This document shows, one piece after another, positions 19,624-26,305 of a DNA stretch of 64,000 nucleotides. Source of the stretch: Escherichia coli (GTDB lineage Bacteria > Pseudomonadota > Gammaproteobacteria > Enterobacterales > Enterobacteriaceae); the NCBI RefSeq assembly GCF_041886205.1, contig NZ_CP169029.1, one strand, 5' to 3'. The notes beneath the pieces were generated by a model. It ran no database searches. It saw nothing but the letters and a program-made list of their open reading frames with translations, and was not told the origin of the DNA. The position numbers and the translations under genes are program-made. Each line of letters starts with the position of its first letter. The stretch's first letter is position 1.

Positions 19624-20171
19624 GTTGTCTCCTTGCTGACCAGCACACGAAACCGTGCCCAATCAAATGCAGGACCGGGATCGGTTTTCCGATCCGGCGC
19701 AATATCACAATGGCCCGTCATGTTATTAGCGATATCGGGATAGCGATCTATCAGTGCCCGCGTAACCGCCGCAAGCTGTTGATACTGCGCATCGGTATAC
19801 GCCAGCGTATCGGTGCCTTCAAGCTCAATCCCAATAGAAAAATCATTGCAGCGTTCGCGCCCCTGATACTGAGAGACTCCCGCATGCCATGCACGTTTAT
19901 CGAAAGGAACATACTGGACTATTTCACCATCACGGCGAATCAAACAGTGAGCGGAGACGCGCAAATGGGCGATCTCAGCAAAGAAAGGATGTGCCTGCGG
20001 ATCAATAGTTCCAGTGAATAATGCGTCGATCCACGGACCGCCAAACTCGCCTGGCGGCAGGCTAATATTGTGCACCACCAGCAGGGTGGGTGTTTCGTCA
20101 TCCGGGCGGCAATCGTAATGTGGTGAGGGAACGCGGCGCGCGCCAACCAGCCACCCCTGTTCTAACAACAT
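19620..20171 (-). CDS. ampD: 1,6-anhydro-N-acetylmuramyl-L-alanine amidase AmpD
   Basis: 183-aa translation [45 protein letters not shown]…. Confidence 0.95.
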
Positions 20172-20198
20172 GCAGGATCTCCTTATATGTGGTGCTAA

Positions 20199-21152
<954 letters not shown>

Positions 21153-21354
21153 TTGCTGGCAGATTTATCCGCTCCATCGCGGGCGGATAATCTCCCCTTC
21201 CCCAACTTTCTTCGTAACGCCTCGCAAATTTCTTGTCTTTCGCTGCAACGAAATAAAAAACCTCGGAAGCTGCTTTCCCGTTTCGTTTTTTGCCCCTCGC
21301 TTGTGCCGATGGCGTTTGCCAAAGTAGCGCCAACCAAATCAAGGAGCGAAACAG

Positions 21355-21795
21355 ATGGACAAGCAACGCGGTTTTACACTTATCGAACTGATGGTGGTTA
21401 TTGGCATCATTGCCATTTTAAGCGCCATTGGTATTCCCGCTTATCAAAACTACCTGCGCAAAGCTGCACTCACCGACATGCTACAAACCTTTGTGCCTTA
21501 CCGTACCGCCGTAGAGTTGTGCGCGCTGGAACATGGTGGATTAGATACCTGCGACGGTGGCAGCAATGGCATTCCCTCGCCTACCACCACCCGCTATGTT
21601 TCAGCCATGAGTGTGGCAAAGGGCGTGGTGTCGCTGACCGGGCAAGAAAGTCTCAATGGGCTAAGCGTCGTCATGACGCCAGGTTGGGATAACGCAAACG
21701 GCGTCACCGGCTGGGCGCGCAACTGCAATATCCAAAGTGACAGCGCATTGCAGCAAGCCTGCGAAGATGTCTTCCGCTTTGATGACGCCAACTAA
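21355..21795 (+). CDS. ppdD: Type IV prepilin (major pilin subunit)
   Basis: 146 aa with class III leader MDKQRG/FTLIELMVVIGIIAILSAIGIP (cleavage G|F, Glu+5). Confidence 0.93.
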   Translation: MDKQRGFTLIELMVVIGIIAILSAIGIPAYQNYLRKAALTDMLQTFVPYRTAVELCALEHGGLDTCDGGSNGIPSPTTTRYVSAMSVAKGVVSLTGQESLNGLSVVMTPGWDNANGVTGWARNCNIQSDSALQQACEDVFRFDDAN

Positions 21796-21804
21796 GGAGC
21801 GGCA

Positions 21805-23190
21805 ATGAATATTCCACAGCTCACGGCCCTGTGCCTGCGTTATCAGGGAGTCTTGCTGGATGCCAGCGAAGAAGTGGTTCATGTTGCGGTGGTCGATGCC
21901 CCCTCACATGAGTTGCTGGACGCATTGCATTTCGCTACCACCAAACGTATTGAGATCACCTGCTGGACGCGCCAACAAATGGAAGGTCACGCCAGTCGCA
22001 CACAACAGACATTGCCCGTAGCTGTTCAGGAGAAGCATCAGCCCAAAGCAGAGTTGCTGACTCGAACGTTACAATCTGCGCTGGAACAACGCGCGTCTGA
22101 TATTCATATCGAACCAGCGGACAATGCCTACCGCATCCGCTTGCGTATCGACGGCGTATTGCATCCTTTACCGGATGTTTCACCGGATGCCGGAGTCGCA
22201 TTAACCGCCAGATTAAAAGTGCTGGGAAACCTGGATATTGCGGAACATCGCCTGCCGCAGGACGGGCAATTCACTGTCGAACTGGCAGGAAACGCCGTCT
22301 CATTTCGTATTGCGACCTTACCATGTCGGGGTGGTGAAAAGGTGGTATTAAGGTTGTTACAGCAGGTGAGCCAGGCACTGGATGTCAACACGCTTGGAAT
22401 GCAGCCGTTACAACTGGCGGACTTTGCTCATGCCTTGCAACAACCACAGGGACTGGTGCTGGTAACTGGCCCTACAGGCAGCGGCAAAACGGTCACGCTT
22501 TATAGTGCCCTGCAAACGCTGAATACCGCTGACATTAATATTTGTAGCGTCGAAGATCCGGTTGAGATCCCCATAGCCGGACTAAACCAGACGCAAATCC
22601 ATCCGCGTGCCGGACTCACCTTTCAGGGCGTGTTGCGTGCGTTATTGCGCCAGGATCCTGACGTCATCATGATCGGAGAGATCCGCGATGGCGAAACAGC
22701 AGAGATCGCTATTAAAGCGGCGCAAACTGGTCACCTGGTGTTGTCTACCCTACACACTAATTCCACCTGCGAAACGCTGGTACGTTTACAGCAAATGGGG
22801 GTCGCCCGCTGGATGCTATCATCGGCGCTTACGCTGGTAATAGCCCAGCGTCTGGTACGCAAACTTTGCCCACATTGTCGCCGGCAGCAAGGGGAGCCCA
22901 TCCACATTCCAGACAATGTATGGCCATCGCCGCTGCCCCACTGGCAGGCACCCGGTTGTATACATTGCTACCACGGTTTTTATGGTCGTACGGCCTTATT
23001 TGAAGTTCTGCCCATAACGCCGGTCATTCGTCAGCTTATTTCCGCTAATACCGACGTTGAATCGCTGGAAACGCACGCACGACAGGCGGGTATGCGTACG
23101 CTTTTTGAAAACGGCTGCCTGGCCGTAGAGCAAGGCTTAACCACCTTTGAAGAGTTAATCCGCGTACTGGGGATGCCGCATGGCGAGTAA
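21805..23190 (+). CDS. hofB: Type IV pilus assembly ATPase (GspE/PilB family)
   Basis: 461 aa with Walker A GPTGSGKT and a C-terminal tetracysteine motif (CPHC…CIHC). Confidence 0.92.
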   Translation: MNIPQLTALCLRYQGVLLDASEEVVHVAVVDAPSHELLDALHFATTKRIEITCWTRQQMEGHASRTQQTLPVAVQEKHQPKAELLTRTLQSALEQRASDIHIEPADNAYRIRLRIDGVLHPLPDVSPDAGVALTARLKVLGNLDIAEHRLPQDGQFTVELAGNAVSFRIATLPCRGGEKVVLRLLQQVSQALDVNTLGMQPLQLADFAHALQQPQGLVLVTGPTGSGKTVTLYSALQTLNTADINICSVEDPVEIPIAGLNQTQIHPRAGLTFQGVLRALLRQDPDVIMIGEIRDGETAEIAIKAAQTGHLVLSTLHTNSTCETLVRLQQMGVARWMLSSALTLVIAQRLVRKLCPHCRRQQGEPIHIPDNVWPSPLPHWQAPGCIHCYHGFYGRTALFEVLPITPVIRQLISANTDVESLETHARQAGMRTLFENGCLAVEQGLTTFEELIRVLGMPHGE

Positions 23191-24382
23191 GCAACTCTGG
23201 CGCTGGCATGGCATAACCGGCGACGGCAATGCGCAAGATGGGATGCTATGGGCAGAGAGCCGTACTTTACTGCTTATGGCACTACAGCAACAGATGGTTA
23301 CCCCACTAAGCCTGAAGCGAATCGCCATCAATTCTGCGCAGTGGCGAGGAGATAAAAGCGCGGAAGTCATTCATCAACTGGCGACGCTACTCAAAGCCGG
23401 GTTAACGCTTTCTGAAGGGCTGGCACTGCTGGCGGAACAGCATCCCAGTAAGCAATGGCAAGCGTTGCTGCAATCGCTGGCGCACGATCTCGAACAGGGC
23501 ATTGCCTTTTCCAATGCCTTATTACCCTGGTCAGAGGTATTTCCGCCGCTCTATCAGGCGATGATCCGCACGGGTGAACTGACCGGTAAGCTGGATGAAT
23601 GCTGCTTTGAACTGGCGCATCAGCAAAAAGCCCAGCGTCAGTTGACCGACAAAGTGAAATCAGCGTTGCGTTATCCCATCATCATTTTAGCGATGGCAAT
23701 CATGGTGGTTGTGGCAATGCTGCATTTTGTTCTGCCGGAGTTTGCCGCTATCTATAAGACCTTCAACACCCCACTACCGGCACTAACGCAGGGGATCATG
23801 ACGCTGGCAGACTTTAGTGGCGAATGGGGCTGGCTGCTGGTGTTGTTCGGCTTTCTGCTGGCGATAGCCAATAAGTTGCTGATGCGCCGCCCGACCTGGC
23901 TTATCGCGCGGCAGAAATTGCTGTTACGCATCCCGATTATGGGTTCACTGATGAGGGGACAAAAACTCACGCAGATCTTTACGATTCTGGCGCTGACACA
24001 AAGTGCAGGCATTACTTTTTTACAGGGCGTAGAGAGCGTCAGAGAAACAATGCGCTGCCCGTACTGGATGCAACTTCTGACACAAATCCAGCACGATATC
24101 AGTAACGGTCATCCCATCTGGCTGGCGCTAAAAAATACCGGTGAGTTTAGCCCGCTCTGTTTGCAATTAGTGAGAACAGGAGAGGCATCCGGCTCGCTGG
24201 ACCTCATGTTAGACAACCTCGCCCATCATCATCGGGATAACACAATGGCGCTGGCGGATAACCTCGCAGCCTTACTGGAACCGGCGTTGCTGATCATAAC
24301 GGGAGGAATTATCGGTACGCTGGTGGTGGCAATGTATCTGCCAATTTTCCATTTAGGCGATGCGATGAGTGGGATGGGATAA
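23180..24382 (+). CDS. hofC: Type IV pilus platform protein (GspF/PilC family)
   Basis: 400-aa polytopic membrane protein; start overlaps the hofB end by 11 nt. Confidence 0.92.
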   Translation: MASKQLWRWHGITGDGNAQDGMLWAESRTLLLMALQQQMVTPLSLKRIAINSAQWRGDKSAEVIHQLATLLKAGLTLSEGLALLAEQHPSKQWQALLQSLAHDLEQGIAFSNALLPWSEVFPPLYQAMIRTGELTGKLDECCFELAHQQKAQRQLTDKVKSALRYPIIILAMAIMVVVAMLHFVLPEFAAIYKTFNTPLPALTQGIMTLADFSGEWGWLLVLFGFLLAIANKLLMRRPTWLIARQKLLLRIPIMGSLMRGQKLTQIFTILALTQSAGITFLQGVESVRETMRCPYWMQLLTQIQHDISNGHPIWLALKNTGEFSPLCLQLVRTGEASGSLDLMLDNLAHHHRDNTMALADNLAALLEPALLIITGGIIGTLVVAMYLPIFHLGDAMSGMG

Positions 24383-24408
24383 CGCTGGCGTGTTGCTCCA
24401 CGCCAGCG
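24383..24408. terminator. Hairpin between convergent hofC and guaC
   Basis: Stem cgctggcgtg/cacgccagcg with loop ttgctc, directly after the hofC stop. Confidence 0.55.
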
Positions 24409-24416
24409 TTGGGAGA

Positions 24417-25460
24417 TTAAAGGTTGTTGAAAATGCGGTTTTCTTGTTCCAGCACACGAATAAACGTGGTGCGCTTGGTCAGCTCTTTCAGGCGTGAAGC
24501 CCCAACGTATGTACAAGCTGAACGCAGGCCGCCCAAAATATCACGCGCGGTATTTTCAACCGGGCCTCGCAGCGGCAGCTTAACGGTTTTACCTTCTGCT
24601 GCGCGATATTCCGCAACGCCGCCAACGTGACGTTTCATCGCAGACTCGGAGCTCATGCCGTAGAACAGCATAAATTTCTCGCCGTTCTCCTCAACGATGC
24701 GACCGCCGCTCTCTTCGTGGCCCGCCAGCATGCCGCCAAGCATGACGAAATCGGCACCGCCGCCAAAGGCTTTCGCCACATCGCCCGGCGTGGTGCAGCC
24801 ACCATCGCTGACGATCATTCCGCCCAGACCGTGCGCAGCATCGGCACATTCGATTACCGCAGAAAGTTGCGGATAACCGACGCCTGTTTTGACGCGAGTT
24901 GTACAAACAGAACCTGGGCCAATGCCAACTTTAACGATATCGGCACCTGAGAGGATAAGCTCCTCACACATTTCACCAGTCACTACGTTACCAGCACAAA
25001 TGGTTTTGGTCGGCCACGCTTCACGCGCTTTCGCAACGAACTGCACGAAGTGTTCGGAATAACCATTCGCCACGTCAATACAAACGAAGTTTAATGCCGG
25101 GTTCAGGTCGAGAATCTGTTTAGTTTTTTCGAAATCCGCATCAGACGTACCGGTAGAAACCATCACATGTTTCAGCACATCAGCGGAAGAATTGTTGATA
25201 AACGCTTGCCACTCTTCGACAGAATAGTGTTTATGCACAGCAGTCAAAATATCAAAAGAAGCCAGCGCAGAGGCCATAGAAAATGTGCCTACGGTGTCCA
25301 TATTTGCGGCGATAATCGGCACGCCGGACCAGCTCTGACCTGAATGTTTGAAGGTGAATTGACGTTCCAGTTCAACATCGGAACGGCTTTTAAGAGTGGA
25401 GCGTTTAGGGCGGATGAGAACGTCTTTAAAACCTAACTTCAGATCTTCTTCAATACGCAT
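24417..25460 (-). CDS. guaC: GMP reductase
   Basis: 347-aa IMPDH/GMPR-family translation [33 protein letters not shown]…. Confidence 0.96.
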
Positions 25461-25684
25461 GTGCGGATTCCTGGGGTTAATGGCTATAAGGGTAAGAGCG
25501 CAACTCCAGTGACGCTATCATACGCACTAATCAATGCGGCGCAAGACTGCGAAATTGTCTTTTTTTACGCTACAATCCCATAAATTTACCTGGTAAATAG
25601 TGAGCGAACGTTTCATCAATTTCGCTTTCGTGCACTCATTTTTAACGTTTTGATAATCATGATGAATTCCCGGGAATATAAATT

Positions 25685-26305
25685 ATGAGGTATATAGTTG
25701 CCTTAACGGGAGGCATTGGCAGTGGCAAGAGTACCGTTGCCAATGCGTTTGCTGATCTCGGAATTAACGTCATTGATGCCGATATTATTGCGCGTCAGGT
25801 GGTTGAACCAGGTGCACCTGCGCTACATGCCATTGCTGATCACTTTGGCGCTAACATGATTGCTGCTGATGGAACATTGCAGCGCCGGGCCTTGCGCGAG
25901 CGGATCTTCGCCAACCCGGAAGAGAAAAACTGGCTTAACGCCCTGCTGCATCCGCTGATTCAGCAAGAGACGCAACACCAGATCCAGCAAGCTACTTCCC
26001 CCTATGTACTGTGGGTTGTGCCATTGCTGGTAGAAAACTCACTGTATAAAAAAGCGAATCGAGTGCTGGTGGTGGATGTCAGCCCAGAAACGCAACTTAA
26101 GCGCACCATGCAGCGCGATGATGTAACTCGCGAGCATGTCGAACAAATCCTTGCTGCTCAGGCAACGCGCGAAGCCCGCCTTGCCGTGGCAGATGACGTC
26201 ATTGATAATAACGGCGCACCGGATGCTATCGCATCGGATGTTGCCCGCCTGCACGCACACTATTTGCAGCTTGCGTCGCAGTTTGTCTCACAGGAAAAAC
26301 CGTAA
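25685..26305 (+). CDS. coaE: Dephospho-CoA kinase
   Basis: 206 aa with P-loop GGIGSGKST. Confidence 0.95.

Follow-up and report, generated by a model that had tools for sequence, protein, structure and literature searches.

The stretch of Escherichia coli DNA analysed here (64,000 nucleotides, hereafter the window) carries, according to its ORF list, three intact open reading frames between nadC and guaC, namely ppdD, hofB and hofC. The features of the locus are the following.

20259-21152, plus strand: nadC, the upstream flank.
21208-21229, plus strand: CRP-S site (22-mer), at which Sxy and CRP-cAMP activate the operon, with its core TTCGT-AACGCC-TCGCA (TTCGTAACGCCTCGCA) at 21211-21226.
21265-21278, plus strand: element 2, the palindrome GGAA-GCTGCT-TTCC, conserved at about 90% in its GAA and TTC.
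21317-21325, plus strand: putative extended -10 element TGcCAAAGT, a conserved block.
21341-21346, plus strand: Shine-Dalgarno sequence of ppdD, AAGGAG, 8 nt before the ATG, with GGAG invariant in an alignment of 78 species.
21355-21795, plus strand: ppdD (hcpA), type IVa major prepilin, 146 aa; NCBIfam PRK10574, 268.7 bits against a cut-off of 138.
21355-21372, plus strand: sequence coding for the PpdD leader MDKQRG, the mature protein starting at Phe7.
21805-23190, plus strand: hofB, assembly ATPase of the PilB/GspE family, 461 aa; NCBIfam PRK10436, 823.5 bits against 617.
22468-22491, plus strand: sequence coding for the HofB Walker A motif GPTGSGKT (aa 222-229), found by motif search.
22867-22878 and 22957-22968, plus strand: sequences coding for CPHC (aa 355-358) and CIHC (aa 385-388) of HofB.
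23180-24382, plus strand: hofC, inner-membrane platform protein of the PilC/GspF family, 400 aa; NCBIfam PRK10573, 663 bits against 401.
24383-24408, no strand assigned: perfect 10-bp GC-rich inverted repeat CGCTGGCGTG-TTGCTC-CACGCCAGCG, read directly from the sequence.
24417-25460, minus strand: guaC, the downstream flank, convergent with hofC.

All three proteins score, over their full lengths, above the curated NCBIfam equivalog cut-offs of their families (138 bits for PRK10574, 617 for PRK10436 and 401 for PRK10573). As the corresponding E-values are 1e-80 for PpdD, 4e-248 for HofB and 2e-199 for HofC, chance is ruled out. A preliminary description of this DNA had named these genes and their flanks and called the ORFs intact; the ORFs, each of full length, the Pfam and NCBIfam matches and the genome matches all bear this out. 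The operon is already known and well annotated: the locus is found in 5424 of 5426 complete E. coli genomes, is 100% identical to many of them and is annotated there as ppdD, gspE(hofB) and hofC. Base composition gives no sign of a foreign origin, the GC content of the operon (0.53-0.54) resembling that of its flanks, and a Rfam search of positions 20000-26000 returned no RNA family at E-values up to 1.

PpdD starts with MDKQRG|FTLIE, in which Gly-1, Phe+1 and Glu+5 make up the class III signal peptide and the G|F cleavage site recognized in the preliminary description. The solved PpdD chain 6gv9 begins at residue 7 of the precursor, in agreement with that site; both 6gv9 and 6gms in the PDB are PpdD. 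In profile searches the protein matches Pfam N_methyl and TIGR02532. It also has the cysteine pairs Cys50/60 and Cys118/130 (mature numbering), the second of which would close the C-terminal disulphide-bonded region typical of such pilins, the bonds being predicted. As a separate observation, the pilin is better conserved than its own assembly machinery.

HofB harbours all five motifs of the PilB/GspE family, as the Walker A motif and the tetracysteine pattern pointed out at the start are accompanied by an Asp box, a Walker B motif and a His box. It matches Pfam T2SSE with an E-value of 6e-147, and its closest solved relatives in the PDB are PilB ATPases. HofC comprises two Pfam T2SSF domains and hydrophobic segments around residues 159-192, 212-236 and 361-395, as expected of a platform protein, and matches PilC in PDB 3jc8. 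These names raise the question of whether the genes might instead belong to a type II secretion system and encode a pseudopilin, GspE and GspF. RefSeq and NCBIfam do call HofB 'type II secretion system protein GspE', and the T2SSE and T2SSF domains are common to both kinds of machine. Sauvonnet et al. are also said to have found in 2000 that the Klebsiella Pul secreton is able to assemble PpdD. However, the type II secretion equivalogs all score under their cut-offs (GspE TIGR02533, 457.2 against 630.25; GspF TIGR02120, 270 against 424; GspG TIGR01710, 29.2 against 88.85), the closest proteins of solved structure are the type IV pilus components PilB and PilC, and the filament built from PpdD is a true type IV pilus (6gv9). 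[quoted passage not shown]

The operon was initially presented as a complete minimal set. This stands as far as pilin, ATPase and platform protein are concerned, but not for the remainder of the machine: reconstituted assembly of the PpdD pilus also requires hofMNOPQ, for the secretin and the alignment complex, the minor-pilin genes ppdAB-ygdB-ppdC and the prepilin peptidase gene gspO (bioRxiv 10.1101/856302), none of which lies within the ppdD-hofB-hofC locus. Each of the hofMNOPQ and ppdAB-ygdB-ppdC clusters occurs in 5425 E. coli genomes out of 5426. At the locus itself, none of 80 Enterobacteriaceae has a sequence resembling GspO or PppA, and the peptidase must therefore be encoded elsewhere. 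Among the 5426 E. coli genomes, megablast detects gspO in 3158 and pppA in 3641, both thus being accessory. Of all the parts, only the prepilin peptidase is both absent from the locus and just accessory in the species.

The genes are tightly packed. Only 9 nt separate ppdD from hofB, with an AAGGAG spanning the ppdD stop codon, and the end of hofB and the start of hofC share exactly the 11 nt announced in the preliminary description (23180-23190, ATGGCGAGTAA), with GGGGA 6 nt before the hofC ATG. Of 80 Enterobacteriaceae species, 74 retain this overlap. As hofC starts 11 nt inside hofB, its translation is probably coupled to the termination of hofB. Downstream, hofC and guaC converge, with 34 nt between their stop codons. 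The inverted repeat at 24383-24408 occupies this gap and is likely to be a two-way transcript end; the terminator scan passed over it because no T-run follows the repeat. A remnant of pilD between hofC and guaC was considered and ruled out, the gap being just 34 nt long and occupied by the hairpin.

A search upstream of ppdD for CRP-S/Sxy-type sites, proposed at the outset, yielded a conserved site at 21211-21226, ahead of the first gene. One of its halves is perfect and both have C6; it is the sole match with at most two mismatches to TGCGA-N6-TCGCA within 21141-21271, an interval that corresponds, as judged from the published primer sequences, to the K-12 fragment that bound CRP (PMC1635313). 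The K-12 copy of the site is identical; the site is kept in nine of nine E. coli strains, save for one change in the spacer, and across 78 Enterobacteriaceae species the conservation of its TCGCA half is 80-99%. Some genera of the family have a perfect TGCGA-N6-TCGCA.

Published work gives this site its meaning. In K-12, Sxy together with CRP-cAMP induces the operon 90-fold, as measured with hofB primers, and the induction is abolished in crp and cyaA mutants (PMC1635313); the published qPCR amplicon maps to 22126-22234, within hofB. Neither the ppdD transcript nor the pilin is detectable in ordinary cultures of K-12 and the 72 ECOR strains (PMC1635313, PMC3330819). The laboratory silence ascribed to the operon in the preliminary description thus holds for those strains, but not for O157:H7, which produces HCP pili in Minca minimal medium (PMC2920817). 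Sxy induction yields processed PpdD, and Sxy-induced DNA uptake requires the secretin HofQ (PMC3330819), in line with the link to DNA uptake proposed at the outset.

Such silence invites the idea that the operon is a relic in decay, which has stayed intact by chance, is never expressed and has no function. Added to the lack of expression in standard cultures of K-12 or the 72 ECOR strains, the literature names no natural signal that induces sxy, and the locus lacks a dedicated prepilin peptidase gene. Truncated HofC or HofB-HofC fusion products occur in some E. coli strains (five were noted), and HofC and HofB diverge faster than the neighbouring gene products, with median family identities of 59% and 67%, respectively, versus 86% for nadC and 92% for guaC. 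Nevertheless, among nine diverse strains, in which all ORFs are intact, mean dN/dS values are 0.18 for ppdD, 0.07 for hofB and 0.11 for hofC (nadC, 0.047; guaC, 0.044). Values of 0.07-0.18, far below 1, indicate that the three genes are under purifying selection. The presence of the locus in nearly every E. coli genome speaks against decay as well, as does what 80 species have retained: the order of the genes, the lengths of their ORFs, the 11-nt overlap, the CRP-S site and the Shine-Dalgarno sequences. Gene order is unchanged in all 80 Enterobacteriaceae species examined, in all of which the operon has the same, ancestral housekeeping neighbourhood. Clear ORF truncations affect just two of the 80, hofB in one and ppdD in the other; four other ORF calls, in three species, deviate at the N-terminus and may reflect the choice of start codon. 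Moreover, the machinery is functional once induced, according to published work. The selection and conservation data already largely refute decay, which we regard as very improbable.

Conservation upstream of ppdD extends beyond the CRP-S site. A fixed promoter layout is kept across 73 of 78 Enterobacteriaceae upstream regions (77 species and the window). In this layout, the centre of the CRP-S site at about -113.5 is followed by a conserved cTGcAA block, then by GGAA-N6-TTCC exactly 53 bp downstream of that centre, at about -60.5 (a class I activator position), a T-run from -46 to -41, CTCGC at the -35 position and an extended -10-like TGnCAnAGT. The distance from element 2 to the CRP-S centre is 53 bp in 58 of 73 species, and that to the -10-like hexamer is 49-50 bp in 67 of 73. 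Over 78 species, positions G21318, A21321 and G/T21324-25 vary little or not at all; an extended -10 there would put the transcription start near 21332. A generic sigma-70 scan of 21050-24500 found no consensus sigma-70 promoter. As element 2 is similar to the weak half, TGGAA/TTCCA, of CRP-S sites elsewhere in E. coli, it might be a second, weak CRP-S-like site.

Several of the ppdD promoter blocks reappear upstream of ppdA in unchanged order. A lenient collinear alignment of the two promoters scores 114 against 89.7 +/- 7.2 for shuffles (maximum, 114.5), and strict local promoter-to-promoter alignments recover the CRP-S region alone; similarity beyond the CRP-S site is only suggestive. No conservation outside the CRP site is described at E. 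coli CRP-S promoters according to a paper from 2019 (PMC6728893). It is tempting to speculate that the ppdD promoter is more than a single CRP-S site and that GGAA-N6-TTCC serves as a second, very weak site for CRP-Sxy or for a co-regulator, although we consider this unlikely. If true, the second element could be part of the reason why no natural inducing signal of the regulon has ever been found. The conserved fixed-spacing layout with its second CRP-S-like element is possibly the sole new point of this analysis.

Other readings of the upstream region were set aside. Judged by eye, the conserved blocks do not fit sigma-54, sigma-E, sigma-32 or LexA-box motifs. A leader attenuator or a helix sequestering the Shine-Dalgarno sequence was also considered; the single-sequence fold pairs 21280-21292 with the Shine-Dalgarno region at a z-score of just -0.45, and RNAalifold on 78 species gives no conserved pairs.

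Family membership and published work together suggest how the operon might be expressed and what it might build in the source strain. Binding of cAMP-CRP and Sxy (TfoX) to the CRP-S site at 21208-21229 would switch on an otherwise inactive promoter, and ppdD, hofB and hofC would be transcribed as a single mRNA, with hofB starting 9 nt after ppdD. The PpdD prepilin would enter the inner membrane, where GspO or PppA would cut after Gly6 and methylate Phe7. [quoted passage not shown] The filament might support low-level DNA uptake, for transformation or nutrition, and in EHEC adhesion, as the haemorrhagic coli pilus.

The DNA uptake published for the PpdD machinery is very weak (PMC3330819), and its main natural role is therefore uncertain. 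It is possible, if rather less probable, that in the source strain the module chiefly builds an adhesive or virulence pilus of the HCP type and not a DNA-uptake pilus. PpdD is indeed identical to the protein of O157:H7, which makes its pili in Minca medium; roles in adherence, biofilm formation and twitching are stated for these pili, and induction of cytokine release is demonstrated (PMC2920817). However, commensal and laboratory strains have the same pilin and almost the same promoter, the competence-type CRP-S regulation is conserved, and adhesion and DNA uptake are not mutually exclusive roles.

As a discovery the locus is minor, since it is a core E. coli operon whose regulator has been published and whose pilin and pilus structures are solved. 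It can serve as a positive control, its genes, motifs and biology having been read correctly from the raw sequence. The promoter layout, the conservation of the pilin relative to its machinery and the accessory peptidase may help studies of silent enterobacterial competence genes.

Among known systems, the closest is that of K-12 MG1655, where b0108, b0107 and b0106 are the same genes in the same order, with the same lengths (146, 461 and 400 aa), 9-nt gap, 11-nt overlap, nadC and guaC flanks and CRP-S site. The window, whose orientation is opposite to that of the K-12 record, differs by one amino acid substitution in PpdD, four in HofB and six in HofC; the 202 nt upstream contain seven base changes, all of them outside the CRP-S site. 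The hcpA locus of EHEC O157:H7 has the same operon layout and an identical PpdD/HcpA (WP_000360900.1; no differences from strain TW14359), whereas HofB differs at four and HofC at eight residues; expression in Minca medium is shown for O157:H7 only.

Further afield, the pilA-pilB-pilC-pilD operons of gamma-proteobacteria such as Haemophilus, Vibrio and Pseudomonas have the same order of pilin, ATPase and platform genes; in P. aeruginosa and V. cholerae the order is presumably nadC-pilABCD-coaE. In Pasteurellaceae and Vibrionaceae the pil clusters are under CRP-S/Sxy regulation (PMC1635313). A distant relative (HofC 36% identical) has the same neighbourhood, with ampD upstream and coaE-zapD-yacG downstream, and its prepilin peptidase gene occupies the place of guaC. 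In contrast to the pilABCD operons, E. coli and all 80 Enterobacteriaceae species have no peptidase gene after hofC, where guaC lies on the opposite strand, and the N-terminus of HofB is about 100 residues shorter than that of PilB. GspG, GspE and GspF of type II secretion belong to homologous families, and the ATPase motifs and platform fold are shared with this locus, but the product here is a pilus and the partners GspC, GspD, GspL and GspM are not encoded nearby.

The three genes of the ppdD-hofB-hofC type IV pilus operon are intact in the window, and the open reading frames agree exactly with the coordinates of the preliminary description, between nadC (upstream, same strand) and guaC (downstream, opposite strand):

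21355-21795, plus strand: ppdD, intact open reading frame of 146 aa
21805-23190, plus strand: hofB, intact open reading frame of 461 aa
23180-24382, plus strand: hofC, intact open reading frame of 400 aa

The finding is real and, apart from two corrections regarding completeness and silence, it was correctly interpreted; it is also already known, and of low interest. As described, hofB and hofC overlap by 11 nt (ATGGCGAGTAA, 23180-23190), and GGGGA precedes the hofC ATG at 6 nt. The gap between ppdD and hofB is 9 nt long, with AAGGAG spanning the ppdD stop codon. The base composition of the locus is that of its flanks. Of note, the 34-nt gap between the convergent stop codons of hofC and guaC harbours a perfect 10-bp GC-rich inverted repeat (24383-24408), after which no T-run was found on either strand.

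The motifs ascribed to the pilin and the ATPase, namely a class III leader with a G/F cleavage site and a Walker A motif plus tetracysteine, were all found. The N-terminus of PpdD reads MDKQRG/FTLIE, and HofB has a Walker A motif (GPTGSGKT, aa 222-229), an Asp box, a Walker B motif, a His box and CPHC...CIHC. Pfam identifies N_methyl in PpdD, T2SSE in HofB (E = 6e-147) and two T2SSF domains in HofC. All three proteins pass the curated cut-offs of their NCBIfam equivalog models (PpdD, 268.7 against 138; HofB, 823.5 against 617; HofC, 663 against 401), and they score below those of the strict type II secretion models GspG, GspE and GspF. Among solved structures, HofB is closest to PilB ATPases and HofC to PilC, both of type IV pili. 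An NMR structure and a cryo-EM pilus model are available for PpdD itself (6gms, 6gv9); the chain of 6gv9 begins at precursor residue 7, which confirms the cleavage site. The N-terminus of HofB (21805-22010) is about 100 residues shorter than in PilB, and its MshEN domain matches only profile positions 24-86 of 90 (25.9 bits), so that the first part of the domain is absent.

The three genes had been called a complete minimal set. Pilin, ATPase and platform genes are indeed present, but they form the core of the pilus machine and not the complete machine, as the extra genes that reconstituted pilus assembly also requires (hofMNOPQ, ppdAB-ygdB-ppdC and that of the prepilin peptidase) are absent from the locus. 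Both hofMNOPQ and ppdAB-ygdB-ppdC are found in 5425 of 5426 E. coli genomes. By megablast, which misses divergent alleles and thus yields lower bounds, gspO is present in at least 3158 (58%) and pppA in at least 3641 (67%) complete E. coli genomes. Both known genes for a prepilin peptidase are accessory in this species. The prepilin peptidase is the only non-core part of the machine, with ppdD-hofBC, hofMNOPQ and ppdAB-ygdB-ppdC each above 99.9%.

The upstream region contains a CRP-S/Sxy-type site, for which the preliminary description had proposed a search: TTCGTAACGCCTCGCA at 21211-21226 is the sole upstream match to TGCGA-N6-TCGCA with at most two mismatches. It is unchanged in K-12 and conserved in nine of nine E. 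coli strains. Across an alignment of 78 upstream regions, conservation of its TCGCA half ranges from 80 to 99%, and the full TGCGA-N6-TCGCA occurs unaltered in several genera. In K-12, CRP bound a fragment whose primers (Cameron and Redfield, PMC1635313) correspond to window positions 21141-21271, and hence the site falls within that fragment. A 90-fold Sxy-, CRP- and cAMP-dependent induction was reported for the K-12 operon (PMC1635313); as the qPCR amplicon maps to 22126-22234, within hofB, it was measured on that part of the transcript. No sigma-70 consensus promoter was found at the locus, consistent with a promoter that is normally silent and depends on an activator. The operon had been considered silent under laboratory conditions, and ppdD transcript and pilin were undetected in ordinary cultures of K-12 or 72 ECOR strains (PMC3330819). 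However, silence is not universal, as O157:H7 forms haemorrhagic coli pili (HCP) in Minca medium (PMC2920817); the operon is conditionally rather than always silent. PpdD of O157:H7 TW14359 is identical to the pilin of the window. Sxy induction yields processed pilin, and the proposed link to DNA uptake is borne out by weak, HofQ-dependent uptake (PMC3330819).

Apart from the CRP-S site and the Shine-Dalgarno sequence, the 78-region alignment shows conservation of the following blocks:

21243-21248: cTGcAA block
21265-21278: GGAA-N6-TTCC palindrome
21286-21291: T-run
21296-21300: CTCGC block
21317-21325: TGcCAnAGT, extended -10-like (TGcCAAAGT in the window)

These blocks keep a fixed spacing: the centres of the CRP-S site and the palindrome are 53 bp apart in 58 of 73 species, and the palindrome centre lies 49-50 bp from the conserved A of the -10-like hexamer in 67 of 73. 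If TGcCAnAGT is an extended -10 element, the transcript would start near 21332, with the palindrome centred at about -60.5, which is the class I activator position, and the CRP-S site farther upstream at about -113.5. The palindrome is similar to the weak half, TGGAA/TTCCA, of other CRP-S sites in E. coli (ycaI, sxy, yifB); a second, weak CRP-Sxy site is one possible role for it, and binding of a different regulator is another. We infer this promoter layout, with its extended -10 element, start and second site, from the alignment. The region upstream of K-12 ppdA presents a CRP-S-like site, CTGCAACG (two copies 10 bp apart), CGGAAG, and a T-run then CCTCGCT, in the same order as window positions 21200-21305 upstream of ppdD, a collinear similarity only marginally above that of shuffled controls. 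Upstream of K-12 hofM are two TGCAA repeats 11 bp apart and GGAAATTTCC. No conserved RNA structure was found in the ppdD leader.

Many complete E. coli chromosomes carry the 3.2-kb ppdD-hofB-hofC stretch at 100% identity, with the genes annotated ppdD, gspE(hofB) and hofC, and some version of it is found in 5424 of 5426 complete genomes. Relative to K-12 MG1655 (b0108-b0106), PpdD, HofB and HofC have one, four and six amino-acid changes, respectively. In nine diverse strains (the window, K-12, O157, O26, ST648 and four others), the nadC, ppdD, hofB, hofC and guaC block is intact throughout. Mean dN/dS values of 0.18 (ppdD), 0.07 (hofB) and 0.11 (hofC), against 0.047 (nadC) and 0.044 (guaC), indicate purifying selection on the pilus genes, somewhat weaker than on their housekeeping neighbours. 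HofB-HofC fusion products of 596-674 aa, or a HofC truncated to 264-307 aa, are encoded in some E. coli strains (P0005, P0107, P0114, P0097 and P0111), which shows that the operon is sporadically disrupted in single lineages. The right part of the window (39001-64000, ftsI-murE-leuA-ilvI-sgrR region) is at least 99% identical to only seven complete E. coli genomes, with a best listed match of about 99.9%, and these are not the genomes with full identity at the ppdD locus. This suggests that the window is a recombinant mosaic or belongs to an unsampled lineage.

A family scan with one genome per species gave 80 Enterobacteriaceae loci, and within the stretch fetched for each of them the order is always (aroP)-ampE-ampD-nadC-ppdD-hofB-hofC-guaC-coaE-zapD-yacG-mutT. 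Clear truncations affect only two (hofB in L023, ppdD in L028); four further calls, in L048, L050 and L092, deviate at the N-terminus, for which start-codon choice may account. The 11-nt overlap is retained in 74 of the 80. Median identities to the window are 84% for the pilin, 67% for the ATPase and 59% for the platform protein. Surface pilins are usually the most variable component; the reverse pattern seen here fits a rarely exposed filament.

The housekeeping neighbourhood is also old, judging from distant HofC relatives. At 35-46% identity, pilin-ATPase-platform-guaC-coaE-zapD-yacG is still present, and at 34% coaE directly follows the platform gene. At 36%, contig L105 has pilin-ATPase-platform-Peptidase_A24-coaE-zapD-yacG, with ampD upstream. 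Three states can thus be distinguished: pilin-ATPase-platform-Peptidase_A24-coaE in L105, neither peptidase nor guaC in contigs L101 and L102, and guaC inserted on the opposite strand in all Enterobacteriaceae. From these gene orders, and in the direction of change that we infer, the arrangement in Enterobacteriaceae resembles the widespread pilABCD-coaE neighbourhood, except that the peptidase gene is absent and guaC stands in its place.
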